64,000 nucleotides of DNA, from the IMG/VR virus record IMGVR_UViG_3300030330_005471. One strand, written 5' to 3'. Source of the stretch: a virus (taxonomy: Duplodnaviria; Caudoviricetes). Every line of letters begins with the position of its first letter. Position 1 is the stretch's first letter. The notes beneath the pieces are model-generated. The model saw only the letters and a list, made by a program, of their open reading frames with translations, was not told the DNA's origin and made no database searches. Shown here piece after piece: positions 35,150-53,909 of the stretch. The translations under genes were made by a program, and so were the position numbers.

Positions 35150-35410
35150 AGGAGACTTGGTAACGCATTTGAGCCACGATCTTGGGATCGGACTCGTTAC
35201 CGAGGTGAGAATGGATGTGCCAACAGGAGCATACAAGTGTATTTGGTCTAAAGCACCGTTTATGGAGCTGTTTATCTGTGGTTCATCGCTGAAAATTCTC
35301 TCTTGAATTATAAGGAACACATGTGCGAGAGTTCCAAACGGACATTTTTTGTCCTTTACAATATTCCCACCTGTGATATATTATTAGTAACATTCAACAG
35401 GAGGTGAATA

Positions 35411-35599
35411 ATGTTTAAAGTTGGTGACTTAGTACGGTGGCATGAAAAACTGTACATTGTAACACTTATTGATCCTAGATTTATTAGAGTCATGAGTGTT
35501 CATGATGGAGAATCTACAAGTGCTTTTCCACCCAACTGGCTTACTAAAGTCGAAACGGACAATTTCTGTCCTTTACAATCTTCATCAGACTCATTATAA
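35411..35599 (+). CDS. Array minigene MFKVGDLV
   Basis: GGAGGT RBS; family motif. Confidence 0.7.
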   Translation: MFKVGDLVRWHEKLYIVTLIDPRFIRVMSVHDGESTSAFPPNWLTKVETDNFCPLQSSSDSL

Positions 35600-35711
35600 T
35601 AAATGTATAAAGCAACGATGATGAAAAAAATAAAGTTGGACATTTTTTGACCTTTACAAATTAACATAACCTGTTATATTATATCTGTCAAATTAATTTT
35701 AGGAGAAATCT

Positions 35712-35900
35712 ATGGAAATTGGTAAATTATATAAGGTAATACGCAACGGACACACCTATCCACAAGTAGGTGATGTGATAATGTATGTACAGGGTCTTTA
35801 TAGAGGAGACATGCGTAGTGTATATTTCACAGGTCTGAATCTGAGAACTATGAAACAACACCATTATAAATATGAGGATGTGGAGGTATTATGCGAATAG
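35712..35900 (+). CDS. Array minigene ending VEVLCE
   Basis: AGGAG RBS; junction motif. Confidence 0.7.
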   Translation: MEIGKLYKVIRNGHTYPQVGDVIMYVQGLYRGDMRSVYFTGLNLRTMKQHHYKYEDVEVLCE

Positions 35901-36079
35901 GATCATTAGTAAAATGCAAGTGGCTTGACAATACCCATTTTGGTATAGTTGAGAAATGTACCTATGATAAAGGTTGCCGTTATTGGCGAGTCCATTGGTT
36001 TGGTGATGAATTCCAAAATGGAGTTTTTTGGCCACAAACACTTGAAGATGAAGAAGATTTGGAGGTAATATGCGAGTAG
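35891..36079 (+). CDS. Array minigene MRIGSLV...LEVICE
   Basis: Family motifs. Confidence 0.75.
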   Translation: MRIGSLVKCKWLDNTHFGIVEKCTYDKGCRYWRVHWFGDEFQNGVFWPQTLEDEEDLEVICE

Positions 36080-36231
36080 GTTCATTGGTAAGAGCTAGGC
36101 ATTGGGACGAAAAGGCTATTGGCATTGTCGTGTCCATCAGAAACCAACAAATATGCAAAGTGTTGTTGGTACGCAATCACGACTACAGATTTGATCAACT
36201 TATAAGAGACTTGGAGATAATATGCGAGTAG
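36070..36231 (+). CDS. Array minigene MRVGSLV...LEIICE (53 aa)
   Basis: Manual translation. Confidence 0.7.
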   Translation: MRVGSLVRARHWDEKAIGIVVSIRNQQICKVLLVRNHDYRFDQLIRDLEIICE

Positions 36232-36395
36232 GAACATTAGTGAAAGGTAAAAACATAAATTGGATAGGGGTCATTGTCAAGGTTAACGAAAGAGACTTGT
36301 CATTCTATAAGTCTCACACATACTTGGTGCAGTTTTGTACTGTGAAAAGGCAACAATGGTGTAATAGCCAAGAAATGGAGGTAATATGCGAATAG
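36222..36395 (+). CDS. Array minigene MRVGTLV...MEVICE (57 aa)
   Basis: Manual translation. Confidence 0.7.
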   Translation: MRVGTLVKGKNINWIGVIVKVNERDLSFYKSHTYLVQFCTVKRQQWCNSQEMEVICE

Positions 36396-36625
36396 GAGAC
36401 TTAGTAATGATAGGCGATCAGACCCTCATTATCGTAGCAAACAAGTGGAGTGTCGCTCAGAACGAATGGTATTGGGCAATTGCTCCTGTGGACGATCCAA
36501 GTGATGGAACTTGGCTACCCGAAGATGTTGTTAGCCATGCGTGGAGAGATTATATATGGTGGACAAAAAATGTCCTCGACAATAATATAAGGAATGGTTA
36601 TATTGTAGATAACAAAGGAGAATAA
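36386..36625 (+). CDS. Array minigene MRIGDLV
   Basis: Family motif; reads through a promoter box. Confidence 0.65.
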   Translation: MRIGDLVMIGDQTLIIVANKWSVAQNEWYWAIAPVDDPSDGTWLPEDVVSHAWRDYIWWTKNVLDNNIRNGYIVDNKGE

Positions 36626-36626
36626 C

Positions 36627-36815
36627 ATGGTATACAATACAGGAGACATAGTTGTTTTCATCAATGGATGGGGAGAACATGAACTTGGCATAGTCGTAAT
36701 TCAATATGATAACTATGACACAGAGGTTATGTTCGCAGATGGAATACAATCTTTGGTGGATGGTTGGGATGTAAAAGATGGACACTTAATCCCATTGGAG
36801 GAAACATGCAAGTAG
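36627..36815 (+). CDS. Array minigene MVYNTGDIV...LEETCK
   Basis: Family motifs. Confidence 0.7.
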   Translation: MVYNTGDIVVFINGWGEHELGIVVIQYDNYDTEVMFADGIQSLVDGWDVKDGHLIPLEETCK

Positions 36816-37000
36816 GAGACTTAGTAAGATTCAAAAGACATGTGGTAGACATGGTATGCGATGGAGAAACATGGATAGGTCTAGTGGTAGAGTCCTCTAT
36901 TGAACATCAATTCGAAGGAGTGGTGGCTATGATACAATGGATGTGCTACAATACCCCTACTCCCGAATATGTTGATGACTTGGAGGTATTATGCGAATAG
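36806..37000 (+). CDS. Array minigene MQVGDLV...LEVLCE
   Basis: Family motifs. Confidence 0.75.
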   Translation: MQVGDLVRFKRHVVDMVCDGETWIGLVVESSIEHQFEGVVAMIQWMCYNTPTPEYVDDLEVLCE

Positions 37001-37164
37001 GAACATTAGTAGCGTCCTCTTATGAAATAACAGGGAGATTTCACATAGGTGTTATTATAGATGATGATGGAGATAAACATTGGTTGGTTCACTGGCTAAC
37101 AGGAATATTCACAGGCGACATAGAGTCGTATCATGAGAGCGATTTGGAGGTACTATGCGAGTAG
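36991..37164 (+). CDS. Array minigene MRIGTLV...LEVLCE (57 aa)
   Basis: Manual translation. Confidence 0.7.
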   Translation: MRIGTLVASSYEITGRFHIGVIIDDDGDKHWLVHWLTGIFTGDIESYHESDLEVLCE

Positions 37165-37313
37165 GCAATTTAGTATCAATAAGACTCACAGATGATACAA
37201 AACAAATTGGTGTCATAGTGGAGGCAAAAGCAGAGCATTGCAAAGTCCATTGGACTACAGGCAATAGAGGTTGGTATAGAATAGATTATCTTACGGAGGT
37301 AGTATGCAAGTAG
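37155..37313 (+). CDS. Array minigene MRVGNLV...TEVVCK (52 aa)
   Basis: Manual translation. Confidence 0.7.
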   Translation: MRVGNLVSIRLTDDTKQIGVIVEAKAEHCKVHWTTGNRGWYRIDYLTEVVCK

Positions 37314-37519
37314 GAGATTTAGTAAGGATAAAAAAGGCTTGGATAGATATGTACGAGGGCTACGAGGATACTGTAGGGCTAGTGGTGTATGCCGATAGTG
37401 GCTATGGGGGAGAAAGACCTGTGGGATTTCGGAGGATCAGAATTCTACATGAAAACATAAGAGGACAAATCTATTCCGTATTCGCTGAAGAGGTTTTGGA
37501 GGTAGTATGTTCAAAGTAG
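37304..37519 (+). CDS. Array minigene MQVGDLV...LEVVCSK
   Basis: Family motifs. Confidence 0.75.
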   Translation: MQVGDLVRIKKAWIDMYEGYEDTVGLVVYADSGYGGERPVGFRRIRILHENIRGQIYSVFAEEVLEVVCSK

Positions 37520-37764
37520 GTGACTTGGTGAGAATAAAGAAAGAACATGTCGATCATGAGTACCTCAAAGAAATTGCTTGGGATTCGCATTGGACGAAAG
37601 CCCCTCTTCCACCACCCGAAAAAGATTGGCTTGGGTTGGTGATGGGTTACTTAACTGGTGACGATGGGCATGTCATAAAGGACATGATATATATACAATG
37701 GCTGTGGAGTGGTCGCACCGTTTTAGAATACACCGAGCATTTGGAGGTGGTATGCGACAACTAG
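37507..37764 (+). CDS. Array minigene MFKVGDLV...LEVVCDN
   Basis: Family motifs. Confidence 0.75.
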   Translation: MFKVGDLVRIKKEHVDHEYLKEIAWDSHWTKAPLPPPEKDWLGLVMGYLTGDDGHVIKDMIYIQWLWSGRTVLEYTEHLEVVCDN

Positions 37765-37940
37765 TTTACAAGGTTGGAGATCTGATCATCCAAATAAAAA
37801 CAGGTAGGCTCGGACTAATAACCAAGGTGGACGAACTCCAACCTTGGGGTGTTGAGATTCAATGGACAGACAATGGTGTTAAACAAATTATGCACTGGAC
37901 AAATATCGTCCATGAAGGTCTTTATAGAAAACGGACATAA
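37752..37940 (+). CDS. Array minigene MRQLVYKVGDLI...KRT
   Basis: Family motif; stop inside promoter box. Confidence 0.7.
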   Translation: MRQLVYKVGDLIIQIKTGRLGLITKVDELQPWGVEIQWTDNGVKQIMHWTNIVHEGLYRKRT

Positions 37941-38002
37941 TTTGTCCTTTACATATTTTGAGAATAGGGTATATTATAAACATCAAACAAGTGGAGGTCG
38001 AT

Positions 38003-38185
38003 ATGCGAGTAGGTGATTATGTAAGGTTCAACAACAACGAGGGTGACTTGGACGAGACACTTTGGAAGGTTGTTGGTTTCGAGGAAAGAGGTGGTCGTGC
38101 CTTTGTTCTCGTAAAGCACCCCACCGTAGGTGGTAGGTATTCATTCCCTAAAGATGGGGTTGTGGAGGTAATATGCAACAAATAA
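38003..38185 (+). CDS. Array minigene MRVGDYV...VEVICNK
   Basis: Family motifs. Confidence 0.7.
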   Translation: MRVGDYVRFNNNEGDLDETLWKVVGFEERGGRAFVLVKHPTVGGRYSFPKDGVVEVICNK

Positions 38186-38385
38186 AGGGATCGTTAGTGA
38201 GAAAGGGATCGTTAGTCATGTGGAATGTAAAAGGCTCACTCGATTATGGCGAACTAGGTGTGGTTACATCAGTAAAAGAACTTACATTAAACGAAGAATT
38301 TGATGTTGTGTGGGCAGATGGTACTGTGACAGAGTACGATCATAGTCAAATACAACATCAAAATATAAAAGTGGTCAAATTTTGA
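38173..38385 (+). CDS. Array minigene with duplicated KGSLV
   Basis: Family motif; stop inside promoter box. Confidence 0.7.
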   Translation: MQQIKGSLVRKGSLVMWNVKGSLDYGELGVVTSVKELTLNEEFDVVWADGTVTEYDHSQIQHQNIKVVKF

Positions 38386-38441
38386 CCTTTACAAATTTAC
38401 AACAACATATTATATTACATTTACAACAACAGGAGGACAAT

Positions 38442-38747
38442 ATGTTTACATCAATATCACAGATAAAAAAAGCAAACCGAGAGAATGGCTACCATTTTTT
38501 CAGCAAAGACACGATGGGCTTTTTCAAGTCCAAGACCCACAGGGGTGTGTACGGAGGTCGTTATTTCATAACCTCTGAGCAGTTTGTGTCTACTAGTGGG
38601 GAGGTATACCCCCGAATGTATACAATACGCAAGGCTCACTCTGATGGGGCTATCGACACTGTGGATACCTTTCAAAAATTTAAACACTTAGATCAGGCTA
38701 GAGACTATATCAAGTTCGAGATCTTGGGAGAAGAACAATGGGATTAG
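38442..38747 (+). CDS. Conserved phage hypothetical protein (ANRENGYHFFSKDTMGFF...YFITSEQ)
   Basis: AGGAGG RBS after boxed promoter; not an array-family member. Confidence 0.75.
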   Translation: MFTSISQIKKANRENGYHFFSKDTMGFFKSKTHRGVYGGRYFITSEQFVSTSGEVYPRMYTIRKAHSDGAIDTVDTFQKFKHLDQARDYIKFEILGEEQWD

Positions 38748-38884
38748 GGTCACTAGTAAAACATGAAGGTCTTTTACAAGAGATTGGCATTATCACAAAG
38801 ATCTGTGATGAATTGGCAACAGTTTTCTTCCCCGAAATGAATACGAAGGTACTGGTGTACCTTGATGACTTGGAGGCATTATGA
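38738..38884 (+). CDS. Array minigene MGLGSLV...DDLEAL (48 aa)
   Basis: Manual translation. Confidence 0.65.
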   Translation: MGLGSLVKHEGLLQEIGIITKICDELATVFFPEMNTKVLVYLDDLEAL

Positions 38885-39084
38885 CAAAATTAAATATTAG
38901 GATAGGTTCTCTGTTACAATGGCAAGGAATAACGCAGTGTCGTGGAGAACTGGGAATAGTTATTGGGTTACTAAATGGCAATGGGTATGATGGCTTTGTT
39001 GTACATTGGAGTGTCGATGGTGAAATTGTGGACTATGTAAACGATGAAGCCATAAGTAACCTCATGGAGGTACTATGCAGGTAG
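38881..39084 (+). CDS. Array minigene IRIGSLL...MEVLCR
   Basis: Family motifs. Confidence 0.7.
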   Translation: MTKLNIRIGSLLQWQGITQCRGELGIVIGLLNGNGYDGFVVHWSVDGEIVDYVNDEAISNLMEVLCR

Positions 39085-39248
39085 GTAGTTTAATAAAATG
39101 GACAGAGGCAGATGGACATATCTATTACGGGATTGTCACCAAGGTCGAAGGACAGAAAACTTTCATCCTGTGGGCTGATGGACTTGAAATTGACTACTGT
39201 TTGACAAGCGATATAATGGACAGCCAAATGGAGGTAGTATGCGAGTAG
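39075..39248 (+). CDS. Array minigene MQVGSLI...MEVVCE (57 aa)
   Basis: Manual translation. Confidence 0.7.
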   Translation: MQVGSLIKWTEADGHIYYGIVTKVEGQKTFILWADGLEIDYCLTSDIMDSQMEVVCE

Positions 39249-39439
39249 GCGATCTGATAGAATATACTGAAAATGACGAAACATTCATCGGTCTTGTGGT
39301 CAAGGTCGGTCTTGCCTCAAATATGGGAAAAACAGCTATCAAGATCCAATGGTGTTTTCATGGTGAAGATAAAGATTTCTTCGATGAAACATCGTGGCTA
39401 TGCACAGACGAGGTATGTTTGATCTCAAAACGGACATAA
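39239..39439 (+). CDS. Array minigene MRVGDLI...KRT
   Basis: Family motif; stop inside promoter box. Confidence 0.7.
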   Translation: MRVGDLIEYTENDETFIGLVVKVGLASNMGKTAIKIQWCFHGEDKDFFDETSWLCTDEVCLISKRT

Positions 39440-39480
39440 TTTGTCCTTTACAATAATTCTCATTAGGTTATAATGTTTAT

Positions 39481-39645
39481 ATGAAGATAAAAGTTGGAAA
39501 GATAGTTAAATACAGAGACAATATGCCTCCGAATCTTTGGATAGTACTGACGAAACTCTATGGTGGTCTATGGGAGGTAGCCGAGGTACAGTGTCTCACT
39601 AACAGGAAAATTGCACACACAAAAGACATAAAGGTGGTAAAATGA
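39481..39645 (+). CDS. Array minigene MKIKVGKIV (54 aa), probably leaderless
   Basis: ATG 6 nt after TATAAT. Confidence 0.6.
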   Translation: MKIKVGKIVKYRDNMPPNLWIVLTKLYGGLWEVAEVQCLTNRKIAHTKDIKVVK

Positions 39646-39803
39646 AAACAGGTACATTGGTAAAAGTCTATCACAAAGGTGTTGGTGTTATAGTGGATAG
39701 AGGTATCCACCATAATGGCGATTGGAAATATTTAATATTATTTATCAGCGATGGATATAGAGCATGGTGGACAGAAAACCATTTGGAGGTAATATGCGAA
39801 TAG
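39642..39803 (+). CDS. Array minigene MKTGTLV...LEVICE (53 aa)
   Basis: Manual translation. Confidence 0.7.
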   Translation: MKTGTLVKVYHKGVGVIVDRGIHHNGDWKYLILFISDGYRAWWTENHLEVICE

Positions 39804-39949
39804 GAACATTGGTAACAACAGGTGGTTGGCTAGGAATTGTCGTGGCAATATATGATGATGATATTACATCTATTATGTATGAGATTCACTTTGAGGATGG
39901 AGACAGAGATGTTTTCTATATAGATGACTTGGAGGTATTATGCGAGTAG
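39794..39949 (+). CDS. Array minigene MRIGTLV...LEVLCE
   Basis: Family motifs. Confidence 0.75.
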   Translation: MRIGTLVTTGGWLGIVVAIYDDDITSIMYEIHFEDGDRDVFYIDDLEVLCE

Positions 39950-40125
39950 GGACATTGGTTAAAAGTAAGTGGGCAACGAATATCATAGGTATTCTTTTGG
40001 AAAAACTCACCCTCGGTGATGATGTAGAGTGGGAAGAAGAGTGTTGGAAAGTCTATTGGATTGGCAATGGAGCAATCTTCGACCAAACTCATGAAGAAGA
40101 AGAGGACTTGGAGGTACTATGTTAG
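39940..40125 (+). CDS. Array minigene MRVGTLV...LEVLC
   Basis: Family motifs; close paralogue of 35891. Confidence 0.75.
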   Translation: MRVGTLVKSKWATNIIGILLEKLTLGDDVEWEEECWKVYWIGNGAIFDQTHEEEEDLEVLC

Positions 40126-40276
40126 AACACTTGTTAAACTGTCATGGTGAATGGACTTATCTTTTATCCTTGATAGACTTGTTCCCCACACTACGGTATT
40201 ATCTAAACGGACAAATTCTGTCCTTTACAAAAACACACAACGAGTTAGATTGTAAATATGAAACAACGGAGGAAAT

Positions 40277-41672
40277 ATGAGACTACTAAATTGGACTGAG
40301 GCTTTTATGGAAGGCATGGACTTTATAAAAAAGGTATGGATTGGTATGTACCGAGAGGAAAACGAGTGGAGGGGTACACTGGAAGAATTCTATCCTTCTC
40401 TTGCGATAGCAAACTTTAGTCAACAAAAACTAGAGGACTACCTAAAGGAGGCGATAGAGGGTAGGGCTTGGCTACCAAAGGGTATGCGAGTGTGCTATGA
40501 CGAGAATGAACAAATACTTATAACTGTAACCAAAGAGGTGTAACATGGCTTATGTACAGAATTGGAATCCCGATAACAAGTTATCTGAGAAGGAGGCAAT
40601 AGCCTTCCTCACTAGGGTAGTACCCGATATAACAGACAATGCTTTCCATATACGGAAAGAGTCTGACGATGGTGGCTCTGTCATTTCAGTATACATAGAG
40701 ATGAATGAAGATGGATCTAGAGGCTATCACAACAAACCAGTAAAATATGATGAACTAAAAGGGTGGCGAGTCGTATGGCTCACCTGTCCTCCACAATATA
40801 CGAACAAATGGAGAAAAAGATGATGAATCCAATGGAAATACTTAGATACGAACCGAAAAAGGGCGATGTTATCATCTATAATGATGGCTCATACACAGAG
40901 GTTTTACAAGACTTACAACAAGGTAGCCCATTTATCAAGGGCAAGTTTCACGCACTTGGTGTCGAGCCAAGCGAGATCAACATACACACTCCTCTTATAC
41001 GAACCCAAATGATACAAGGCAAATGCCACCTGTGTCGCAAGGAGGTTGAAGATGTACAAGATAATTCAGATACAACCTCAGAGTAACATGATCGTGGCTC
41101 ATATCAAACTCAATGACAAGTACTACTGTGTAGGGGATGATGGGTACTCCGTTATGATCTTCAAAGGTGACGAGGGTGGCAACATTGTTTCGTGGATAGA
41201 ACTAGCAAAATTTGACAATAAAATGCTGAAAGATGTTGTGCGAAACAAGTCATCCTTTCGGACTTGTTTGCGAATCGGACAAAAAATGTCCTAGACAAAT
41301 TATCCATAACGCATTATATTACTAACATCATTCAACAACGAGGTTAATATGAAATGGAAACGAAACAAGGGAACATTCAGAGTCTATGGTGGTCATGGTT
41401 GGACAAACTATGAGGGTTCACACTATGTTTGTTATCCTTTTATGATCAATCGATCTCTCAACAATGAAAGCAGATGGGCTTTGACCCATATCGCTTGTGG
41501 CAGAGAGGTCGGAAACTTTAGAACACTGGCTGTTGCTAAAGAGTGTGCTTTAGCATTGCAACACTATAAACATTGGTTCTTACCCACAGAAGAACTTGTA
41601 TTAAAGTCTATGGTTGATAGTGGAGAGAAACAAGAGATCATGAATGTTGTCCAAGACCACAGAGTAAAATAA
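40277..41672 (+). other. Cluster of five small hypothetical genes (40277-40543, 40545-40823, 40820-41086, 41052-41294, 41349-41672)
   Basis: RBS-preceded, tightly packed ORFs behind boxed promoters. Confidence 0.7.
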
Positions 41673-41748
41673 AAACGGACATTTTTTGTCCTTTACATAT
41701 TTTGAGAATAAGATATATTATATTTACACAACAACATAGGAGACTATT

Positions 41749-42090
41749 ATGAAGATAAAAGTATGCAGACACTGTGAGGACGAATTCGATTGTCGCTCCA
41801 CTCGAAAGGCTACCGTAGGGGGGTACATAGATGAATGTCCCGACTGTGTGGAAGAACTGGGAACAGAAACCCATGTCAAATACCAAGGAGTCATATCGGG
41901 AGAGGGTAAACAAGCCTGTATTCAGATATTGTCCTTCGAATCCAAAGCAGACGCTGAGGAATACAAGCGAAGATGGGAACGCAATAGTGGTTGGAACAAC
42001 CGAAGATCGGGTGGTCTAAACGATAGTTCTATCAAGTTCAAGAAGGTCGGTGAGACACGAGGGAACGCAAACCATAAAGGCAAAGGCTAA
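41749..42090 (+). CDS. C4 zinc-finger hypothetical protein
   Basis: CRHC...CPDC. Confidence 0.65.
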   Translation: MKIKVCRHCEDEFDCRSTRKATVGGYIDECPDCVEELGTETHVKYQGVISGEGKQACIQILSFESKADAEEYKRRWERNSGWNNRRSGGLNDSSIKFKKVGETRGNANHKGKG

Positions 42091-42101
42091 CAGGAGACAC
42101 T

Positions 42102-42299: not shown

Positions 42300-42375
42300 A
42301 ACGGACATTTTTTGTCCTTTACAAACTTACAACAACATATTATAATACTTATACATTCAACAACGGAGGTCAATT

Positions 42376-43179
42376 ATGGCTATTAACAACAGAACAGATA
42401 ACAACTATCGTTCTTCATCAAGGTGTACATTCTGTCAAGGTAATCATACCATCACAGGTTGCACAAAAGTATATGAAGAGGCTGAACAGGCAAAGAAATT
42501 ATCATTCTCTCAGAGAACATTTAAGCAACACTATGCTATGCAATACATAGAACTCAAAGAATCTCGCTCCAAGAAGAGAAAAACTGGCACTAAAAAGTGT
42601 GGGTACTGTGGTGGTGCAGACCATACTCGCAGAAATTGCAGTGTTATGGAGGCAGATAGAGAATTTCTCTTGAGAGCCAACCAACTATGGAGAAGAATGT
42701 ATGCCCATCTATCGGTAGAGTATGGCTTTGCTCCAGCTAGTCTTATCAAGTACCGAGAGAGAGATAGGTACAACTACAACACACAAAAGTACGAAACCAA
42801 TGAGAATCTGTACCTTATTGGCTCTGAATTGCCGACCAATCTATCTGTCTTTGCCTTATCGGGAGATCACTCTCTGAGGCAAGAGATCAAAATTCCAGCT
42901 GTAGGTCGTGATAGACCAATGAGTGTGAGAGATTTCGTACATGGAAAGCCATGTCGCAAAGCCCTAACAGGGCATGGTTATTGGTGGGGTGACGATGATA
43001 GTATCGAGATCGTAACCAGATCCACCTATCAGTATCCCGAAGAATGGTTCGAGGGTGAGTGTGATGACATAGATTATGTTCTTAAAAAGTGGAACAGAGA
43101 AAGGATTGAAAGAGATATTCTGTCTCCAATCCGTTCAGAACTCATTCCATTTGCACAAACAACAGGCTTTGATATATAA
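42376..43179 (+). CDS. Protein with two CCHC zinc knuckles
   Basis: CTFCQGNHTITGC and CGYCGGADHTRRNC. Confidence 0.75.
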   Translation: MAINNRTDNNYRSSSRCTFCQGNHTITGCTKVYEEAEQAKKLSFSQRTFKQHYAMQYIELKESRSKKRKTGTKKCGYCGGADHTRRNCSVMEADREFLLRANQLWRRMYAHLSVEYGFAPASLIKYRERDRYNYNTQKYETNENLYLIGSELPTNLSVFALSGDHSLRQEIKIPAVGRDRPMSVRDFVHGKPCRKALTGHGYWWGDDDSIEIVTRSTYQYPEEWFEGECDDIDYVLKKWNRERIERDILSPIRSELIPFAQTTGFDI

Positions 43180-43247
43180 CGGACATAATTTGTCCTTTAC
43201 AAACTTACAACAACATATTATATTATAAACATAAACAAGGAGTCGCT

Positions 43248-43843: not shown

Positions 43844-44249
43844 TTTAACACACTTTCAAGAGGTACTATTAGGTAACACAGTTCACATAGGAAGAACCGA
43901 CATAGCAAGGCTAGGGAATACATTATATCGTAGATGTATTTACGACTATGACAAGAAGAACAATAGAATACGAGGTTGGTTGCCCATACTCAAACTAGAA
44001 GAAGGGCAATGGGTAGGTTATAACTATTCGGGCAAGGACTTTGCCTCGTATCTTCTGAACAACCAGTGGCAACGATCTCACTATTGGTCAGAATTAAAGT
44101 ATGTACAAATTGGTCGTGGTATCGGCTGTAAGGGTACAAAGAGATTATGGTCTTGGCAATGCTCGTTTAAACGGTTCATGACCAAGATGATCAACCCAAC
44201 AATGGATATGCTGTTGCCCGAAGATACTGTCTTTGACCTAGTAGGATAA
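43836..44249 (+). CDS. Hypothetical protein, paralogue of 43248
   Basis: MTNLT, GYNY, KDFAS, LKYVQIG. Confidence 0.7.
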   Translation: MTNLTHFQEVLLGNTVHIGRTDIARLGNTLYRRCIYDYDKKNNRIRGWLPILKLEEGQWVGYNYSGKDFASYLLNNQWQRSHYWSELKYVQIGRGIGCKGTKRLWSWQCSFKRFMTKMINPTMDMLLPEDTVFDLVG

Positions 44250-44321
44250 AAACGGACATTTTTTGTCCTTTACAATATCTCATAACTTGTTACAATATAG
44301 ATATAAAAGGAGGACAGAACA

Positions 44322-44468
44322 ATGTCTAAAAAGAAGAAACAACAACCATCTAAACGCAATCCTATCCAACAAATGCATATAGAACAGAACCGTAAGGCAG
44401 GTGTGCATACGGATAAGAAGAAAGAGCGAAACAAGAAAGCATGTCGAGGGAGACAATATGACAGATAG
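44322..44468 (+). CDS. 48-aa highly basic peptide (KRNP...RKAGVHTDKKK)
   Basis: AGGAGG RBS after boxed promoter; manual translation. Confidence 0.65.
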   Translation: MSKKKKQQPSKRNPIQQMHIEQNRKAGVHTDKKKERNKKACRGRQYDR

Positions 44469-44657
44469 AGAATTTATAAAAAAACTACTAGAGATGATGG
44501 AGATCAACGCACTTGCCGATTGGATCACCAACGATCCTTGGGACGAGTTCGAGTCATTGAGGGTCATGATCGAAGAACATTTAAAACGGACATAATTTGT
44601 CCTTTACAATATTTCATAACTTGTTATAATATAGACATAACCAACAAGGAGTACATC

Positions 44658-45896
44658 ATGTCAGATGAAACAACAACAACTAAACAGGAAGAGATCCTAG
44701 ACTTTGATCTCGATCTTCACACTTATCGCTTGCTACAGGCAGAACCATTCTTCTCAGCCCTATCTCGTAGGATACACAAGTCCTCCACCACAGCTATACC
44801 CACAGCAGGTGTGAAGATGAACGAGGGGAGTGGTAACTTTGAGATGATCTACAACCCAAATTTCTTTGCCAAACTTTCGGACAAGGAAAAGCTCGGTGTC
44901 CTTATGCACGAGTTCTACCACATCATCTTTGAGCATGTCACAGGTCGGCTACCTCCCGAAGGTATGTCCAAGATGTGGAACATTGCCACAGACTTGGCGA
45001 TCAACTCTCACTTGATGGACTCACTCCCCGAACAAGGTCTTTTCCCAACAAGAGGTCGGTTTGAGGACTACCCTGTGGGTATGTCGGCTGAATGGTATTA
45101 CTCCAAGTTGCAACAGGATAAAGAGAATGGCGAAGGTGCTTTCGATCCTAAACATCAACAAGGCGAAGGTGGTGGCGAAGGTCAAGGTGGGGACAATATG
45201 CCCGACTCCCTAGACGATCACAGTGGTTGGTCTGATGTAGACCAAGACACACGACAAATGGCTCAAGAACGAATGAGACAAGCTGTTGAGGACGCTGTGA
45301 AAGAGGTACAATCTCGTGGTCAAGGTTGGGGTAATGTGTCTAGTGGTATGAGAGAACGAATCATTGATATGATCACACCAAAGGTTGACTGGCGAAAAGT
45401 TCTTAGATACTTTATCAAGACCTCCCAAAGACAGAACAAGAGGTCTACGGTACGGAGAGTCAACCCTCGCTATCCCTACATTCATGCAGGGAAGAAGGTC
45501 AACAGAACAGCAAAAATTGCGATCTCTATTGACCAATCGGGTTCCGTATCAGATGATATGCTCAGTGCCTTCTTCTCAGAACTCAATGGGCTTGCTCAGC
45601 AAGTCGAGTTCACTGTGATCCCTTTCGATACCCAAGTAGACGAGTCTAAAGTCTATGTATGGAAGAAAGGTCAGAGGAGACAAGTCGAACGAGTCCTTTG
45701 TGGTGGTACATGTTTCAATGCACCAACCAAGTTTGTGAATGACAATGGTGGCTTTGATGGTCATATTATACTCACAGATATGGAGGCTCCAAAGCCTGTG
45801 GCTAGTAAGTGTCAGAGAATATGGTTCACCACAGAACAGTGTGCCAAGAACCCATACTTTCAGACCAATGAAAAAGTTATCGGGATCAGTATGTAA
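44658..45896 (+). CDS. HExxH metallopeptidase-like (DUF2201-type) plus VWA domain protein
   Basis: PTAGV, LMHEFYH, WNIATDLAIN, LDDH..W, IDQSGSV, GGTCF, LTD. Confidence 0.88.
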   Translation: MSDETTTTKQEEILDFDLDLHTYRLLQAEPFFSALSRRIHKSSTTAIPTAGVKMNEGSGNFEMIYNPNFFAKLSDKEKLGVLMHEFYHIIFEHVTGRLPPEGMSKMWNIATDLAINSHLMDSLPEQGLFPTRGRFEDYPVGMSAEWYYSKLQQDKENGEGAFDPKHQQGEGGGEGQGGDNMPDSLDDHSGWSDVDQDTRQMAQERMRQAVEDAVKEVQSRGQGWGNVSSGMRERIIDMITPKVDWRKVLRYFIKTSQRQNKRSTVRRVNPRYPYIHAGKKVNRTAKIAISIDQSGSVSDDMLSAFFSELNGLAQQVEFTVIPFDTQVDESKVYVWKKGQRRQVERVLCGGTCFNAPTKFVNDNGGFDGHIILTDMEAPKPVASKCQRIWFTTEQCAKNPYFQTNEKVIGISM

Positions 45897-45907: not shown

Positions 45908-46033
45908 AGTGACACCTCCTTATGAGGTGGGGTATGGGTGGGCAATAAGTTTTTTTAAAACGGACATAATCTGTCCTTTACAATAATTACTGAACAGGGT
46001 ATATTACTATTATACAGACTGAGGGATTCGATA

Positions 46034-47039
46034 ATGAAATTCAAAACAGTGGTTATCATTGAAACAGATGACGAGGGCTTTCTAACCCTTAAGGCTCTGT
46101 TACCCAATGATGGGATTGTTTGGACAAGAATTGTCGGGCAGAACAAGGTCGCAGTGAGACTTAAAGACGATATAGACATAGAATGGGTTGAGAAACAACT
46201 AAACTCATTACATAGAACACTAAACATCTGAGGTGCATGATGGCACAAGAATGGAAATACAGAGAACACAAGGGAAAGCAAGGAAGGTTCCGAATAGGCG
46301 ATCTCGTACAACTCTCAGCCTATGGTAAGAGTACTGATCAGAACACCAACCCACACTTTGATGGAAACGAACTTGGTCTTATCATTGAGATAGGAGGAAA
46401 CACTAGATTCGGTGGTGATATTCAAAAATACCCCATTGTAGTGCAGTGGATCAATGTCCCAAAGGGAACCAATGTTGCCAAGAGGTTCTTCTTCAGAGAG
46501 TTAAAACTAAAACGGACATAATTTGTCCTTTACAATATTCAACCAACATATTATATTATAAACATCTTCAACAACAAGGAGTCTATCATGGACACTAAAG
46601 ACAACAACAACATCACGATACAACTATCAGTATCAGATGAACTATTAAACAAGGTTCTCCGAGCCTTAGTAACACCACCCCCAAGCCCTATGGGTGGAGG
46701 TATGCCTATCCCTATGAGTTTGTTATCGGGTTTACTAGGTCAAGCCCCACCATCTGACGACGAAAAGTCTGAGGAAAAGCCAACCGTAGGTTTCAAAATT
46801 AAAGGAGCGAAATAATGACTATCATATCAACAAAGCAACTGAGCAATGGTTTAGGTCAAACTGTCATTACAACACTTGTGGTGCATAATGGAAACTACTT
46901 TGTAGTATCCGAGAATCCTAGAGAGACTCTGATATTCCCTAGCAACAGCAAAGGGGAACACAAGTTCCTTGAGGTAGGATCGGGTTTCGATACAGCAGAT
47001 TGCCTCAACCAAATCGAAAACGGACAAATTATGTCCTAG
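46034..47039 (+). other. Four small genes (46034-46231, 46237-46521 GDLV family, 46588-46815, 46815-47039) between the VWA and AAA genes
   Basis: Two boxed-promoter units. Confidence 0.7.
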
Positions 47040-47113
47040 ACTTTATTTTCAAACCTAGTTATATTATAAACATCATTCAAACGATAACTTAACAACAAAC
47101 AATGGAGACTATT

Positions 47114-48169
47114 ATGTCTATTGATTACAAAACCCTATTCACCATCCTTCCCCATGTCTTTGAGGCGAGATTCCCTGTCCTCTTACGAGGTCGGCATGGT
47201 ATCGGTAAGTCCACAGTAGTATACCAACAAGCCAAAGCAATGGGTTTGCCTGTGGTAGAAAGACGAGCCTCACAGATGACCGAAGGTGATCTACTTGGTC
47301 TACCCAAGATCGATGGTAATGTCACAGCTTGGCTTGCACCCGAATGGCTTGACAAGGCTTGCAAAGAACCAGTTATCTTGTTCCTTGACGAGGTTGATCG
47401 TGCTACCCTAGAGGTACGACAGGGTATCTTCGAATTGTGTGACTCTCGTAAGATCGCAGGTCACAAACTCCATCCCGACACACTTATCTTTGCTTGTGTC
47501 AATGGTGGTAAGCATGGTGCAGAGTATCAAGTCAACGAGTTCGATCCAGCCGAACTTGATCGCTACACTGTCTTTGATGTAGAGCCTACCGTAGAGGACT
47601 GGCTTGACTGGGCTAAAGGCAATGTCATTGACGAGATATGGGATTTCATCAACCACAATCACCAACATCTCGAACACAAGGATACCTTCGAGCCTAACAA
47701 GATCTATCCTTCAAGACGATCTTGGGAAAGACTCTCAGACGCATTGCAAAGTGTCGGTGAGGTAAAGCATAGTCCTACCCTATACCACCTTGCTCATTCT
47801 TTTATCGGCTTTGAGGGTGCTATGGCTCTGAATGACTATATCAAGAACTACTCTAAAGTTGTGACTCCCGAACAAATTCTTGACGAGGGTAAGGTAGACT
47901 TGACTGAAAAGTTCAAGATCAACGACCATAACAGTCTTATTGAAAAGTTCAAGGCTAAAGAGTGCTTTGATACGGAGTTATCTGACAGTCAGTTACAGAA
48001 TCTCGCTGAATACTTTGTGACACTCCCATCTGAGATCGCTATGACCTTGTGGCAAGCGATGGGATCGGGCAAGGAGGCAACCAAGAATGTCGCTAGGTTG
48101 CATGGTTTACAGACTAAAACTGGCTCTGTGCAAGACTTTATCGTCAGTATCCTAACAGCAGGTCAATAG
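47114..48169 (+). CDS. MoxR-like/AAA_5 ATPase
   Basis: GRHGIGKS, GDLLGLP, LFLDEVDRA, FDPAELDRY, PSRRSWE. Confidence 0.9.
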   Translation: MSIDYKTLFTILPHVFEARFPVLLRGRHGIGKSTVVYQQAKAMGLPVVERRASQMTEGDLLGLPKIDGNVTAWLAPEWLDKACKEPVILFLDEVDRATLEVRQGIFELCDSRKIAGHKLHPDTLIFACVNGGKHGAEYQVNEFDPAELDRYTVFDVEPTVEDWLDWAKGNVIDEIWDFINHNHQHLEHKDTFEPNKIYPSRRSWERLSDALQSVGEVKHSPTLYHLAHSFIGFEGAMALNDYIKNYSKVVTPEQILDEGKVDLTEKFKINDHNSLIEKFKAKECFDTELSDSQLQNLAEYFVTLPSEIAMTLWQAMGSGKEATKNVARLHGLQTKTGSVQDFIVSILTAGQ

Positions 48170-48179
48170 ACCTACTGAT

Positions 48180-48210: not shown

Positions 48211-48293
48211 AACCTACTCGGACATTTTTTGTCCTTTACAAATTATTCTGAACCTATTATATTATAAACATCAACAACACAAGAGGTGATCAG

Positions 48294-51148
48294 ATGGAAC
48301 AAGATAATATACCCGATGTAGGAGATTTAGTCACAGTATTTAGATCAATCCCTAACGCAATAAACCGTATGGGATTGGTCATAAAGGTTGAGTACAGTAG
48401 TCAAGTACCCATATTCACTGTACAATTTCCAGATGGAACTGTTCGCACCTTGGGAAGATTGTGGATCGAAAAGATTAAAAAATAAAAACGGACATTTTTT
48501 GTCCTTTACAAATTCTTTTAAACCTATTATATTACTAGTATAACCAACAACAAGGAGTTATCCATGAGAATACGAAACAACCAAGGTGCTACAATGACCC
48601 CCAAGTGTGCGAACCTTATCCGAGACTTGAACAAACTAGTTCGTGAAGGTCTTTCCATTGAAGAGGCAGAGGAATACCTTAAACTTGAAAATTGGCGATG
48701 TGATCAAGGCTATGCACCTCACAAAGGCGATTGGAAAAAGGCTAAAAAGCGAATCCTCCAAGTAGCAGAGTTCAGAAAGACAGGTGCTACTACCCTCAAG
48801 GGTGGGTGGGGTAAGCGATGAATATCGGAGACATAATGCTATACAACAATCGAGAAAACCCTCGCCTAAACGATACCTTAGTTCTCATAATGGGAAACAA
48901 TGGTCGTATCCACAGGAAAGTAATGTTCTTGAAAGATGGATTTATAACAGAGAACTGTTGGGTAGGTTACTTATTACCAATAGGAGATAACCATGTCAGT
49001 AGGTGAAATTTATTTGTGGAATGATGGAGTGTTGGATCACTTGGTCATGATCGTACCATCGGGGAACGGAGTAGGGAATTGGGTTGGGTGGTGTTCAGTT
49101 CAGTTCATCAGTGGAGGACGAAAATTTCAAGTCCAACACTACCAACTTAAACCTTTGGAGAACAGATGAAAGAAGAATTCAAGATAGGCGATCTCGTTGA
49201 GGTCAAGATTCTCAGAGATCATCCCGAAATTGGAATAGTGGTAGGCATTGAAGATCCCGAAAGAACCAACAATGGTCTATATGTATTGATCGAGGGTTGG
49301 ACTCCTAGTGGAGGCATGGTTAAGGCTTGGCTACCATTGAACAGAGTAAAAAAAATAAAAACGGACAAAATTTGACCTTTACAATTTAAACAGACCTTGA
49401 TATAATACTAATACATTCAACAACAGGAGAACATTATGTTAAAAAGAAGTAGGTACTCACAACAATATAAAACCATTCAACAGGCAAGGGCTTGGGCTTA
49501 TGAACAAGATTTTAATGATGTATGGTATCTTATCCACAACAGAGAGAAGAACAGATACCAGTTGGTAAATGATGGTCGGCTTTACTACCTACAACATTGT
49601 TGGGATCTTGACTTTGAAATTATTGAAACTTGGGAATAGATATGAAGGTAGGTGATTTGGTGTTGCTCGACATAGGATATGGCAACCCATACGGTATGAA
49701 AAAGCCACCCGAATTAGCGATCATCAGAGGTATCAACACAGACTATAGCCCAACTCGATACTACCTAACAGTGGTGTCAACAGGAAAACGCAAGTGGGCA
49801 ACTCAAAATTTCATCGAACCAGTGGAGGAAACATGCAAGTAGGAGATTTAGTGTGGTCATTGTCAGATGACATCAAAGGCTCGAAGAAACGATTGGCGAT
49901 CATCCTCGCCTTAGACTATGACCATTGGAATCCATATTTCATCCAGTTAGTCGCTTGTGGGAGACAGGGAAAAACAGCAAGAAAGTATCTCGAACCATTG
50001 GACAGAGACTAAACGGACAAAAAATGTCCTTTACAAATCCCAACCACCCTGTTATAATATAAACATCATTCAAACGAACCAAGGAGTTCAACATGACTTT
50101 AGTAGACCTTCAAGAACTATTCAGCGATTCACTCTCTCTAACACGAGAGGAGATCAGCAAACTCGATAAACAAGCCCTCGTGGAAAATGCTCATGGTGAT
50201 CCTAAACTCCCTCGGAGAGAACGAAACATTCAAGCGATACGAAACAATCTCTTGTTGAGTATGATCGAGTGGAACGAGATAGACCACGACAGCCTACTTG
50301 ATCGTTGGTATTTCATAACTAGCAGAGCGATTGAACTGGGAGATTTCTGTCCCGACTTGGCAAAGGTACATATGTTGGGTGTAGAGCATGTTTTATCTCT
50401 TCGGTCATAATTTGTCCTTTACATTCTGAGACAACAGGTTATATTACTGATATGAACAACGGAGAAAACATGGAACCATTTTTAGATATAGGGACTCTCG
50501 TAATATACGAACTGTGGCGACCGAACATAGAAGATATGGAATTGGTTGTGGGGTTGATAACCAAGGTCAACCGAAAGATATGGAATAACCACAGAATCCT
50601 TATTCCAAAGTACAATATAGAAAGAATGGAGAACAGGTGCAAGATATACATCTTCACAGAGGAGAACTGGGACAAACTATACAAGGAGAGAGTAGCATGG
50701 AAAAACTAAAGATCGGAGATCTTGTCAAGTATCCTAGAGGCATTAACGATGATAGCAACGGAATTTTGTGTATTGTGATAGAGATAAAAGGAAACACAGG
50801 ACAATACATAGTACAGAGCATAGCCACAGGTGAGCATTATGTAGCGATTGATCGTTGGCTCACACACCCACCCCTATACCCGAACCAACGGAGACAACAA
50901 TGAAAAATAATGTAGACTTTATTGAACCAACAACCAAGTACACCATAGGGGATCTAGTACAGTACCCCATGTCCAAAGCAGTAGAAGAAGGAAAAGTTAC
51001 ACCAACCCTATGTCTCGTTGTAGAGATACGGAATGGATACTATAGGCTTCAGTGTACTAGGACTCGGTTGTTTCATAACACCACAGAACAGTGGATAGCC
51101 CTACCCACCTACTACCCTACCCCTATGGGGTCACTAAAAACTCCCTAG
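48294..51148 (+). other. Second cluster of minigenes, mostly GDLV family (48294, 48818, 49166, 49642, 49833, 50470, 50697, 50900) plus 48564, 49436 and 50093
   Basis: Family motifs; boxed promoters. Confidence 0.75.
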
Positions 51149-51272
51149 ATGGTCATTAAGGGCTTGTATGCGTACCTTGGAGTATATGTCCGTATTCGTT
51201 TGTACTCGCCTGTATATACTGTATCAAAGTCACCCTACGAGTGTAACTATCACCCCGAAAAGGAAAACGACA

Positions 51273-51491
51273 ATGAAAAACGAAAATACCCCGAAAAACT
51301 CACAGCAAACCCTATTTCCTCGCATTACAAGCGTATCACAGGCGATCATGTACATAGAGGATTACCACAGTGACGAGTTCTTTGTTGAGTCCTTCCAGTA
51401 CCTCATAGACACAGGCGTTGTATGGCAGTTGCAAGGTTGGTACGGTCGCACAGCCATAGACTTGATCAATACAGGCGTATGCACACGATAA
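51273..51491 (+). CDS. Conserved phage hypothetical protein (FQYLIDTG..WQLQGWYGR)
   Basis: Recognisable phage motif. Confidence 0.7.
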   Translation: MKNENTPKNSQQTLFPRITSVSQAIMYIEDYHSDEFFVESFQYLIDTGVVWQLQGWYGRTAIDLINTGVCTR

Positions 51492-51625
51492 AGTCTTGAC
51501 AGACTTTCAAGCGACTCCTAGAGAGAATCGACTAAAGTTCTCGTTTAAATGGTTTAAACCGTAGGTTTAAATGGTATAAAAGTCTTGACATTTGGTATAT
51601 TTATATACCAATTGGCTTAAATAAT

Positions 51626-51668
51626 TTAATTGACATTTCGATGTTTCAGATTTAATTGACATTTCGAT
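51626..51668 (+). repeat. Two copies of 17-bp TTAATTGACATTTCGAT
   Basis: Identical to the 35074 series. Confidence 0.9.
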
Positions 51669-51780
51669 ATAGACTGTTTTCCGAATCGGTCAAATTCTGT
51701 CCGAAAACGGAATAAAAAAGATTTGACAGATCAGCCCAAACGAATTACATTACCTTTACATTCAAACCAACGAGGTAAAT

Positions 51781-52023
51781 ATGAAAATGAATAAAGGCGA
51801 TCTAGTTCAAGTAAACATTGGATACGGAGCCGTTGAGGGCGATCCTCTCAAGTGCGAGCTAAAGAAGGCTTGGGGCGTGATCACAGAGATCCGTAGAGAA
51901 GGCGAACGCCTTATGGTTCACTTTATCGAAGATGATCGTGAATACTTGATAAAAAGATTCAACATAAAGGTGGTCGTAAACAAGAACGGTCAAATTCTGT
52001 CCGAAACTAATATTGACAAATAA
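51781..52023 (+). CDS. GDLV-family minigene
   Basis: MKMNKGDLVQV. Confidence 0.7.
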   Translation: MKMNKGDLVQVNIGYGAVEGDPLKCELKKAWGVITEIRREGERLMVHFIEDDREYLIKRFNIKVVVNKNGQILSETNIDK

Positions 52024-52069
52024 ACCTAAACCGATTATAATATATATACATTCAAACAACGAGGTCACT

Positions 52070-52381
52070 ATGACAAACGAAGAACTTATTAAAGCATTTA
52101 TTAACAAGACTCACGAGTACGGAAAGAACGGCACAGGTGCGTTATCTTTCGTAGGAAACAGGATCTATTCTTACAACCTCCTTATAGGAGAATACATAGA
52201 TCGCTCTGAAGAGGGTTTTATCGGACTCCTTATCCACGACCACATGGCAACAGGATTGGGATTCATCTCGGCTACAACCTCTCAGCATGTCTCTCTCCTT
52301 AAGAGACTCACCGAGTATCACCCTAGAAGGATCAACTCTACCGAGACATCAATCTTTGGTGCACCGTATCACAGACAATAA
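52070..52381 (+). CDS. Hypothetical protein (IYSYNLLIG...SATTSQHV)
   Basis: GAGGT RBS. Confidence 0.7.
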   Translation: MTNEELIKAFINKTHEYGKNGTGALSFVGNRIYSYNLLIGEYIDRSEEGFIGLLIHDHMATGLGFISATTSQHVSLLKRLTEYHPRRINSTETSIFGAPYHRQ

Positions 52382-52428
52382 CCCTACTACCCTACTATAC
52401 CCCCTTAACCCATACCATGAGGTAAATT

Positions 52429-52599
52429 ATGAAAAACATCCTTATACCCTTCTTCTTCTCTCAACTCCCTTTCGCTCTCCTTCTCTTCGCAATTGGTTGC
52501 TTTAAAGCAAATGCTGAAACCGAAGAGGCTCCAATCGCCACTGTGACAGTGGTAGACTCCGAGATCGAGATCATTGACGCTACAACCGTAAACCAGTAG
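52429..52599 (+). CDS. Small lipoprotein (MKNILIP...LLLFAIGC)
   Basis: Classical signal peptide with lipobox; manual translation. Confidence 0.6.
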   Translation: MKNILIPFFFSQLPFALLLFAIGCFKANAETEEAPIATVTVVDSEIEIIDATTVNQ

Positions 52600-52608
52600 G
52601 AGACACTT

Positions 52609-52845
52609 ATGAATTACGATACAGACAACACACTTTCAGCAACCACACGAGAGGCTAAGCAACTAGCAAACGAGATCCGACAAAGAGTATTTGTCCTCTA
52701 TTACCCTGCCGATGACGAATTCGACTATAGCGAGTTCAAGCCCGACCGAGACGATATGACTGTTTCAGTCATGAGAGAGGTCAAGCCCGATCCTATCCAA
52801 TATGAGGAAGGTTGCAACGGACTCAAGTACAATACCGTAAGGTAG
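52609..52845 (+). CDS. Hypothetical protein
   Basis: AGGAG RBS. Confidence 0.65.
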   Translation: MNYDTDNTLSATTREAKQLANEIRQRVFVLYYPADDEFDYSEFKPDRDDMTVSVMREVKPDPIQYEEGCNGLKYNTVR

Positions 52846-52867
52846 GCATGGGCCCCCACGTTTAAAC

Positions 52868-52908
52868 AGCCGACAATGGAGGATTGTCGGTTGGTTTTTC
52901 ATTTTTTT
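52868..52908 (+). terminator. Rho-independent terminator
   Basis: AGCCGACAAT-GGAGG-ATTGTCGGTT followed by T-rich tract. Confidence 0.7.
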
Positions 52909-53047
52909 AATTAATTGACATTTCGATGTCACATGCATGTGTGATCGAGCTTCCTACGGAAGTCGGACAAATTCTGTCCGTTTTACGGTTGCTCGATCAA
53001 TCCGAATTGGTTATAATATATATATGAAAACAACAAAGGAGATTCAT

Positions 53048-53641
53048 ATGAAAGAATTTGTCATCACAATTAACCCCTTCCGAGCCCCTTTTATGAGAGA
53101 ACGAATGATCCCCGTTCAGACCGTATGCAAGTATCGCAACGGATCCAAGTACGAGTATAGCGAATATGCGTACGGTAAGCCCCATTGTGGTCGTGTCTAC
53201 CGATGGACTGACACACCCGAATCACTTGCCGAAAAAGAGCGTCATATCCCTGCTTTTATGGAAAGAGTAGAGAGGACATATGAGAAGGCTAGAACACGAT
53301 TCAGTAAGACCTATCAAGGGATCTCCCACGAGGACGAGGTTGTTAGAACATACGCACCTTATCCACAGTGCCCACAAGCGATCAAGTCCGTTATGTCCGA
53401 TAGATGGAACCAGTACATAGCCGATAGACAATTTCTGTCCAACATTGTGTCTCGTATGAGGATCCAATTCGGACATTTAATGACCAGTGCTCAGACTGGC
53501 GAGTATGACAGGATAGGCGACTCGCTTTATCGAATTCATTCTATGTATATGACTCTATCGGCTATGTGTCGACCCGATCACCATAGAGTAGAATACAGGA
53601 AGATCAAGGGAGTTGACCCTCTACTAGCGAATAGAAGATAG
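53048..53641 (+). CDS. Hypothetical protein
   Basis: AAGGAG RBS before ATG 53048. Confidence 0.7.
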   Translation: MKEFVITINPFRAPFMRERMIPVQTVCKYRNGSKYEYSEYAYGKPHCGRVYRWTDTPESLAEKERHIPAFMERVERTYEKARTRFSKTYQGISHEDEVVRTYAPYPQCPQAIKSVMSDRWNQYIADRQFLSNIVSRMRIQFGHLMTSAQTGEYDRIGDSLYRIHSMYMTLSAMCRPDHHRVEYRKIKGVDPLLANRR

Positions 53642-53909
53642 TCGGTCAATTTCTGTCCGTTTCACAGTTGCACACTCTGTTCGAATTTGTTATATTATAT
53701 ATATGAAAACAACCAAGGAGGTTTTTCATGCTACAGTTCGCGATAATTTTCACTTACACGATCCTGATCGTTCCTTCCTTCTGTGTGGTGTGGAGAGTAA
53801 TCCACGAAGAATATTTTTAAACTGGACAAATTCTGTCCGTTTCCAACTTGCACACTTTAACCAAATCGATTATAATATATATATGAAAACAACAAAGGAG
53901 TATTTCATT

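Follow-up and report, generated by a model that had tools for sequence, protein, structure and literature searches.

A palindromic box upstream of the −35 hexamer marks the early promoters of a clade of uncultured T4-like marine phages and is probably an activator site

Several described systems use sites that resemble the element reported here. High-affinity sites of the host nucleoid protein Fis follow rules that include G/C at ±7 from the dyad center, a pyrimidine-purine (Y-R) step at ±3/4, no T at +4, and no A at −4 (PMC4784862), and the Fis consensus reads GNNYAWWWWWTRNNC (PMC3302801). Operators of the BrxR family, made of 10- to 11-bp inverted repeats with a 5-bp spacer, lie on bent DNA (PMC9122601), and the sites of DriD have an A/T-rich gap (PMC10853764). 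Phage lambda encodes a Fis mimic of its own, NinH (PMC7166090). The early promoters of the lytic phage phi29 carry sites of DNA-bending regulators (p4/p6 and host Spo0A boxes). In T4, an extra element added to the host sigma70 boxes marks the temporal class of a promoter, namely, a conserved upstream region in the early promoters and the MotA box in the middle promoters. Next to nothing is known about how uncultured marine T4-like phages regulate their early genes. Here, we analyzed a 64,000-nucleotide stretch of such a phage (IMG/VR record IMGVR_UViG_3300030330_005471, referred to as the window), in which a 15-bp palindromic box, GGWCA-N5-TGWCC (W, A or T), stands upstream of the −35 hexamer of the early promoters.

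As in T4, the box is added to host sigma70 boxes and marks a temporal class, and a TTTACA-type −35 is common to T4 promoters and box promoters. However, the T4 elements are either A-rich tracts resembling the upstream promoter (UP) element or an asymmetric MotA box standing in place of the −35, whereas the box is a perfect dyad upstream of a −35 that is retained. No MotA or AsiA turned up, although no search was aimed at either. The box promoters share with those of phi29 that early promoters of a lytic phage carry what may be sites of a DNA-bending regulator, and these phages, like lambda, also encode a Fis-like protein, but one that is not specific to the clade with the box. The site sequences, geometry, and copy number differ from those in phi29 and lambda.

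A pattern scan of the window returned 28 exact matches to the box, all between positions 35340 and 53838, whereas 100 shuffles averaged 0.16 matches and never gave more than 2. Allowing one mismatch added only five sites, with 5.5 expected by chance, and the box is therefore sharply defined. Its spacer is 5 nt long in 28 of 28 boxes and is A or T at 132 of 140 bases; all eight exceptions are C, each at the last spacer position. The original prediction had confined the box to 35.3 to 53.9 kb and had described a constant, almost pure A/T spacer, and both statements agree with the scan. The half-site variants GGTCA and TGACC also occur, singly or paired, as had been described, and GGTCA was found in addition at 51688, 51988, and 53644 and TGACC at 53471. 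The zone that holds the boxes consists of small, tightly packed plus-strand genes with strong Shine-Dalgarno (SD) sequences.

Genes of the window include those for a DnaB-like helicase, a class II ribonucleotide reductase, DnaE, and GroEL. Megablast identified no close relatives among GenBank phages. Identity to cultured phages does not exceed 30% for DnaE and 44% for the capsid protein; the cultured phages closest in the capsid protein (~44% identity) have Flavobacterium and Microcystis as hosts. The relatives in IMG/VR are uncultured marine contigs, three of which are complete (184 to 191 kb) and carry a gp23-type capsid protein, a prohead protease, and a gp25 homologue; the box clade is one of uncultured T4-like marine phages of ~185 to 190 kb. 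Exact box-plus-promoter words recur at 16 IMG/VR loci, and the three complete relatives contain 20, 25, and 17 boxes, nearly all within one zone of ~17 kb that is syntenic with that of the window. Their proteins are 25% to 72% identical to those of the window, and most of the small early genes have no detectable counterpart. When a conserved AAA_5 ATPase of the early zone was used as the clade marker, loci at 65% identity or above had 12 to 27 boxes each, and those at 61% or below had none, except for two with one or two stray matches. No box was found anywhere in five complete sister genomes. This distribution, kept while most early genes differ, indicates that the box is a clade-specific innovation under strong selection. 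The box word is a real regulatory dyad, kept across the clade and marking an early regulon. The box-plus-(−35) word gave no clue to the host, with five scattered single hits in 185,579 species genomes. The best-conserved part of the early zone is a CobT/CobS-like gene set, consisting of the DUF2201 metallopeptidase/VWA gene (44658 to 45896) and the AAA_5 ATPase gene (47114 to 48169), with 68% to 73% identity to the relative G001.

The anatomy of the box was determined from 245 nonredundant units of the box clade, selected by the box pattern. The palindrome extends beyond the core as AAAC-GGWCA-W5-TGWCC-GTTT, over roughly 17 to 23 bp, with 9-bp arms around the 5-bp A/T gap and half-site centers 10 bp apart. 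The three central spacer bases are A or T in at least 99% of the units, whereas the outer ones are more permissive (G at −2 in 20 of 245 and C at +2 in 79 of 245). Position −8 is C or T in 227 units and G in a single one, its mirror position being alike (G equivalent in 1 of 245), and A occupies each of positions −12 to −9 in 55% to 71% of the units. The two W positions (3 and 13) vary independently, with 159 symmetric pairs observed and 154.9 expected.

Such a palindrome could also be read as RNA, that is, as a hairpin acting as a weak terminator or insulator between units or as a processing or stability element. Symmetric boxes do fold at −6.9 kcal/mol, many boxes directly follow stop codons, and when read on the minus strand, the boxes are followed by GTTTTT and are caught by a simple terminator scan. 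However, the central pair of the 5-bp stem is mismatched in 35% of the units, exactly as independent variation predicts, and these mixed units fold at only −1.3 to −2.9 kcal/mol. This lack of covariation contradicts a hairpin or terminator, and the independence of the W positions rules out a selected RNA hairpin. In addition, the coding strand has only three T's after the box, the loop is limited to A/T, the distance to the −35 is quantized by helical turns, and a true terminator with an 11-bp stem exists separately (52867 to 52893). We therefore regard an RNA function of the box as extremely unlikely.

The position of the box relative to the promoter is equally regular. In the window, 22 of the 28 boxes end exactly where the −35 hexamer begins; this hexamer is TTTACA in 18 cases, TAGACA or TAGACT in two, and TCGACA in one, and it lies 16 to 17 bp from TATATT or TATAAT. 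Another five boxes are displaced upstream of the −35, three of them by 9 bp, one by 10 bp, and one by 20 bp. The original prediction had the box touching the −35 at about 27 promoters, which is true of 22 but not of these five. It had also excluded the box from the TTGACA promoters of the replication zone (1 to 35 kb), and indeed, the 11 strong promoters of that zone read TTGACA-N16/17-TATAAT behind an A-tract, without a box at any of them; however, two of the displaced-box early promoters use TTGACA as well. Among the box-free promoters of the window phage, 11 of 12 have TTGACA.

Over the clade, the box directly abuts the −35 in 129 units, lies 9 to 10 bp upstream in about 59, and lies 20 bp upstream in 6. 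With predicted transcription start sites, the box centers fall near −42/−43, −52/−53, and −63, on one helical face. None of the 129 abutting units has the consensus TTGACA, and 75 of them have a 16-bp spacer between −35 and −10, so that their core is suboptimal; about half of the units at a gap of 9 to 10 bp and all six at 20 bp have TTGACA. The geometry predicted for class II activation, with an activator site around −41.5 that touches or overlaps the −35, is thus present at the 22 abutting promoters of the window, and the consistent lack of a consensus −35 next to abutting boxes lends it support; the five displaced ones are class I-like.

In box-free relatives, the homologous small-gene zone uses a perfect TTGACA behind an A-tract, as do the replication-zone promoters of the window phage. 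The box, with its G/C-rich arms, is not itself an UP element, which would be an A/T-rich tract at −40 to −60, but it occupies the position of the A-tract in the box-free promoters. Since A-tract and TTGACA stand at the same place there, the box would have replaced an UP-like element. Two box-free relatives have early promoter features of their own. In L044 (e.g., 617 to 660, 1041 to 1085, and 3589 to 3633), each early promoter has two extra TTGACA-like hexamers ~11 bp apart upstream of the true −35, and this double hexamer of the L044 clade is another clade-specific upstream element. In L065, 22 early promoters over 1286 to 19504 combine an A-tract, a perfect TTGACA, and a conserved ATTTAAA between −35 and −10.

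We estimate a probability of about 0.5 that the box is the site of a dimeric DNA-bending regulator that recruits RNA polymerase and that more likely comes from the host, or enters together with the DNA, than is produced after infection. The protein would bind as one symmetric dimer or as two dimers and contact two consecutive major grooves on the same DNA face, with a narrow A/T minor groove between them. Placed where related promoters have the A-tract, it would recruit RNA polymerase in a class II-like manner when centered near −42/−43 and in a class I-like manner near −52/−53 and −63; promoters with an imperfect −35 would thereby depend on it, and the block of small early genes would be marked as one regulon. 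Activation is favored by the helical phasing, by the weakening of the −35 only where the box abuts it, and by the activating element that was replaced; we read the box as a probable activator site substituted for an UP element. As to the origin of the protein, the promoters with the box are early ones, and we found no conserved DNA-binding protein of the phages that would match it, which points to the host or to delivery with the DNA. The original prediction of a single dimeric regulator for the early regulon finds good support in the half-site independence, the A/T center, the phasing, and the conservation of the box, but the regulator itself was not found and its activating role is one that we infer.

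Several points weigh against an activator. The core promoters are still good (five of six bases in the −35 and a near-consensus −10) and may need none; the 23-bp palindrome, which overlaps the first bases of the −35, would suit a repressor equally well; a small early protein with a CopG-like N terminus is restricted to the box clade; and novel phage DNA-binding folds would escape Pfam. The box could be the operator of a phage-encoded early repressor that silences the early promoters together when transcription switches to the middle and late classes, by denying sigma region 4 and the alpha C-terminal domains access to the upstream edge of the −35. T4-like programs require early shutoff, and the overlap with the −35 would serve it. 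However, about a quarter of the sites lie 9 to 20 bp upstream of the −35 in helical phase, where occlusion is unlikely, and the −35 is systematically weak only at abutting boxes. We consider such a repressor rather unlikely.

The protein with the CopG-like N terminus is the best, albeit weak, phage-encoded candidate for the reader. It is the 75-amino-acid (aa) product of the gene at 46588 to 46815 (plus strand), itself behind a box promoter, and members of its family (61 to 92 aa) occur in all box-clade loci covering the zone and are undetectable in box-free relatives. By eye, its start, ITITLSDE, resembles the strand-helix segment of CopG-type ribbon-helix-helix (RHH) proteins. The operators of the small phage and plasmid repressors Arc, Mnt, and CopG are likewise short dyads with half-sites about one turn apart, but they overlap the core promoter, and the RHH assignment of the 75-aa protein comes without a Pfam or PDB match or a confident model. 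The AlphaFold2 model is poor (pLDDT, 64), with helices at residues 17 to 28 and 43 to 49, the second of them short, and a long proline-rich loop. Moreover, the putative DNA-facing residues vary within the family, whereas the box does not; this contrast between an invariant box and variable phage candidates favors a reader that is conserved in the host or delivered with the DNA.

A second candidate is a Fis-like helix-turn-helix (HTH) protein of 110 to 129 aa, found through a weak HTH_8 hit and encoded in relatives ~3 kb past the point corresponding to the window end (G001, 44081 to 44470, equal to L019, 6081 to 6467; L138, 1364 to 1699). It could likewise serve a repressor, but it was rejected as the reader, being present in box-free clades too and having a variable, often acidic recognition helix. 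In relatives, this protein with its Fis/NtrC-like C-terminal HTH is encoded directly upstream of an Acb5-type anti-CBASS gene (G001, 45928 to 46371).

Otherwise, the original statement that the window has no obvious cognate regulator gene was confirmed, in that Pfam scans of the window found no HTH-type protein. No HTH family was detected by Pfam among the small open reading frames (ORFs), 115 of G001 and 90 of the window, and no Fis-type HTH_8, sigma region 4, WYL, HTH_11, or SpoIIID domain scored above the family cutoffs in the complete relatives, the WYL, HTH_11, and SpoIIID searches covering five complete genomes. A PHROG tally of midsize ORFs was uninformative. Several proteins specific to the box clade were considered and rejected as the reader: a cupin, a trypsin-like peptidase, ThyX, the Acb5-type anti-CBASS protein, a lipoprotein, and an acidic protein. 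The 103-aa family encoded at 52070 to 52378 was dismissed as well, with a poor, beta-rich model and only weak similarity to AB5 B subunits. The protein encoded at 41749 to 42090, which is absent from G001 and L067, does not qualify as a universal reader. It has 113 aa and a C4 zinc ribbon and is 52% to 96% identical over most of the box clade.

Among host proteins, Fis is the obvious one to consider; if it read the box, early transcription would be tied to the growth state of the host, and Fis would act in the way that it does at proP P2 (class II) and at rrn P1 (upstream and phased). The published rules for high-affinity sites all apply. G at −7 and C at +7 are present in the 28 window boxes and the 245 clade units by virtue of the pattern used, the Y-R step at ±3/4 is given by the invariant CA and TG, a purine is available for Asn84 at +4, the center (−2 to +2) is A/T, G is rare at ±8, and the flanking A-tracts are in phase (PMC4784862, PMC3302801). 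As in the Fis sites of proP P2, rrnB P1, and tyrT, a 15-bp core bounded by G/C, with a noncontacted A/T center and with A-tracts, lies on one helical face and, where it abuts, adjoins a nonconsensus −35. Fis is a documented class II activator, and a proteobacterial host would be in keeping with the strong SD sequences and the canonical sigma70 boxes. However, Fis sites are degenerate and read by shape at ±5 and ±6, whereas none of the 27 promoters departs from G at ±6 and W at ±5; with ±6, ±4, and ±3 invariant and only W at ±5, the box is far more constrained than Fis logos are. C is found at +2 in eight of the 28 boxes. Other matches to the Fis consensus number only 5 in the 64-kb window, against 3.6 by chance. 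To our knowledge, Fis is confined to gamma- and betaproteobacteria, and the hosts of the nearest cultured capsid relatives, Flavobacterium and Microcystis, also speak against it. On balance, we think it unlikely that Fis reads the box.

Another host reader could be a winged HTH-WYL (wHTH-WYL) regulator of the YfjR/BrxR/CapW/DriD kind, a sensor of DNA damage or phage that would be exploited for early firing or titrated. The operators of these regulators resemble the box in their ~10-bp inverted repeats, their 5-bp (BrxR; PMC9122601) or A/T-rich (DriD; PMC10853764) gap, and their binding by a dimer on bent DNA. E. coli K-12 has three exact GGACA-N5-TGTCC sites: (i) one in CP4-57 (L161, 14517 to 14531), which shares the C...G flanks and lies 173 bp upstream of yfjR, a gene for an HTH_DeoR plus WYL protein; (ii) one at 267140, with an identical spacer; and (iii) one at 3651948. 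However, the K-12 spacer is G/C-rich, unlike those of the phages, and the link between YfjR and the box is putative. WYL regulators are encoded beside their operators, and each governs a single operon or a few, whereas here there are 17 to 28 sites and the phages encode no WYL or HTH_11 protein; an inverted repeat with a 5-bp A/T gap is present, but a cognate WYL regulator nearby is not. A decoy role, furthermore, requires no fixed spacing to the promoter. A reader of this family is, in our view, very unlikely. It is also quite unlikely, on a somewhat wider reading, that the box was adopted in place of the UP-like element to read either such a damage- or phage-sensing host regulator or another abundant host DNA-bending protein, so that a host signal would fire, or be titrated by, 20 to 28 phage promoters at DNA entry. 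The box is assigned to neither the Fis nor the wHTH-WYL family.

All box units of the window are on the plus strand, and they are described here as −35, spacer length, and −10. The first box, GGACATTTTTTGTCC (unit 35340 to 35382, gene start at 35411), abuts TTTACA-16-TATATT, as do the boxes of the units 35638 to 35680 (mixed, GGACA/TGACC; gene 35712), 37933 to 37975 (gene 38003), 41677 to 41719 (gene 41749, zinc-ribbon protein), and 50403 to 50445 (mixed; gene 50470). TTTACA-17-TATATT is abutted in the units 38373 to 38416 (GGTCA/TGACC; gene 38442), 43181 to 43224 (gene 43248), 45962 to 46005 (gene 46034), 46514 to 46557 (gene 46588, 75-aa candidate), 48220 to 48263 (gene 48294), and 48490 to 48533 (gene 48564). 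The same −35 is combined with 17-TATAAT at 35557 to 35600, which runs into the next unit, at 42303 to 42346 (gene 42376), at 49363 to 49406 (mixed; gene 49436), and at 50015 to 50058 (gene 50093); with 16-TATAAT at 39432 to 39474 (ATG at 39481) and 44588 to 44630 (gene 44658, DUF2201/VWA); with 16-TAGATT at 40209 to 40251 (gene 40277); and with 16-TACAAT at 44254 to 44296 (gene 44322, a 48-aa basic protein). The remaining abutting boxes adjoin TCGACA-17-TATATT (36561 to 36604; gene 36627), TAGACA-17-TATATT (41277 to 41320; gene 41349), and TAGACT-17-TATATT (47022 to 47065; gene 47114, AAA_5 ATPase). The 54-aa gene with its ATG at 39481 (within 39447 to 39645) has no SD sequence, and the ATG follows the −10 by 6 nt; its mRNA may be translated leaderless.

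The displaced boxes lie toward the end of the zone. The box is 20 bp upstream of TTGACA-17-TACATT at 51688 to 51751 (gene 51781) and 10 bp upstream of TTGACA-17-TATAAT at 51988 to 52041 (gene 52070, the 103-aa box-clade-specific protein). It is 9 bp upstream of TTGCTC-17-TATAAT at 52965 to 53017 (gene 53048), of TTGCAC-17-TATATT at 53644 to 53696, and of TTGCAC-17-TATAAT at 53824 to 53876 (gene 53910). The terminator at 52867 to 52893, its stem followed by a T-run, is the sole convincing plus-strand intrinsic terminator of the early zone and is located directly before the promoter at 52965. The remaining box (53471 to 53485) lies within the ORF at 53048 to 53641, with no promoter downstream, and a one-mismatch box at 53426 precedes it by 45 bp. 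This pair of dyads (53426 to 53485) is confined to the closest relatives, being kept in L003 and L006 but not in L031 or L035.

Some other gene products of these phages were noted. The 267-aa early protein encoded at 42376 to 43179 has two CCHC zinc-knuckle-like motifs, and two or three paralogues per genome occur in the early zone of relatives, with one in a box-free genome. In the replication zone, a 62-aa protein (4657 to 4845) matches the chlamydial histone H1-like Hc1 family (Pfam E value, 3e-8) and is likely a nonspecific DNA-binding protein. The box-clade-specific lipoprotein (10223 to 11134) carries a signal peptide, a lipobox, and an EPS-rich linker; it may function in superinfection exclusion. 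ClpS, a DnaJ-domain protein, GroEL, and a Cpn10-like protein are also encoded (window positions 14078 to 14413, 9636 to 10220, and 28413 to 29984), and G001 additionally encodes ribosomal protein S21 and thioredoxin.

In these phages, one exactly defined DNA word marks the whole block of host takeover genes. It was gained in one clade and is absent from the sister clades, together with a coadapted weakening of the −35, and it may thus represent a natural experiment in which a phage swapped an UP element for a factor-dependent one. The box of 15 to 23 bp offers a probe with which the regulator could be pulled out, and this could in turn hint at the host. If the reader is a host protein, the box would be usable as a marker of host range or physiological state in metagenomes.

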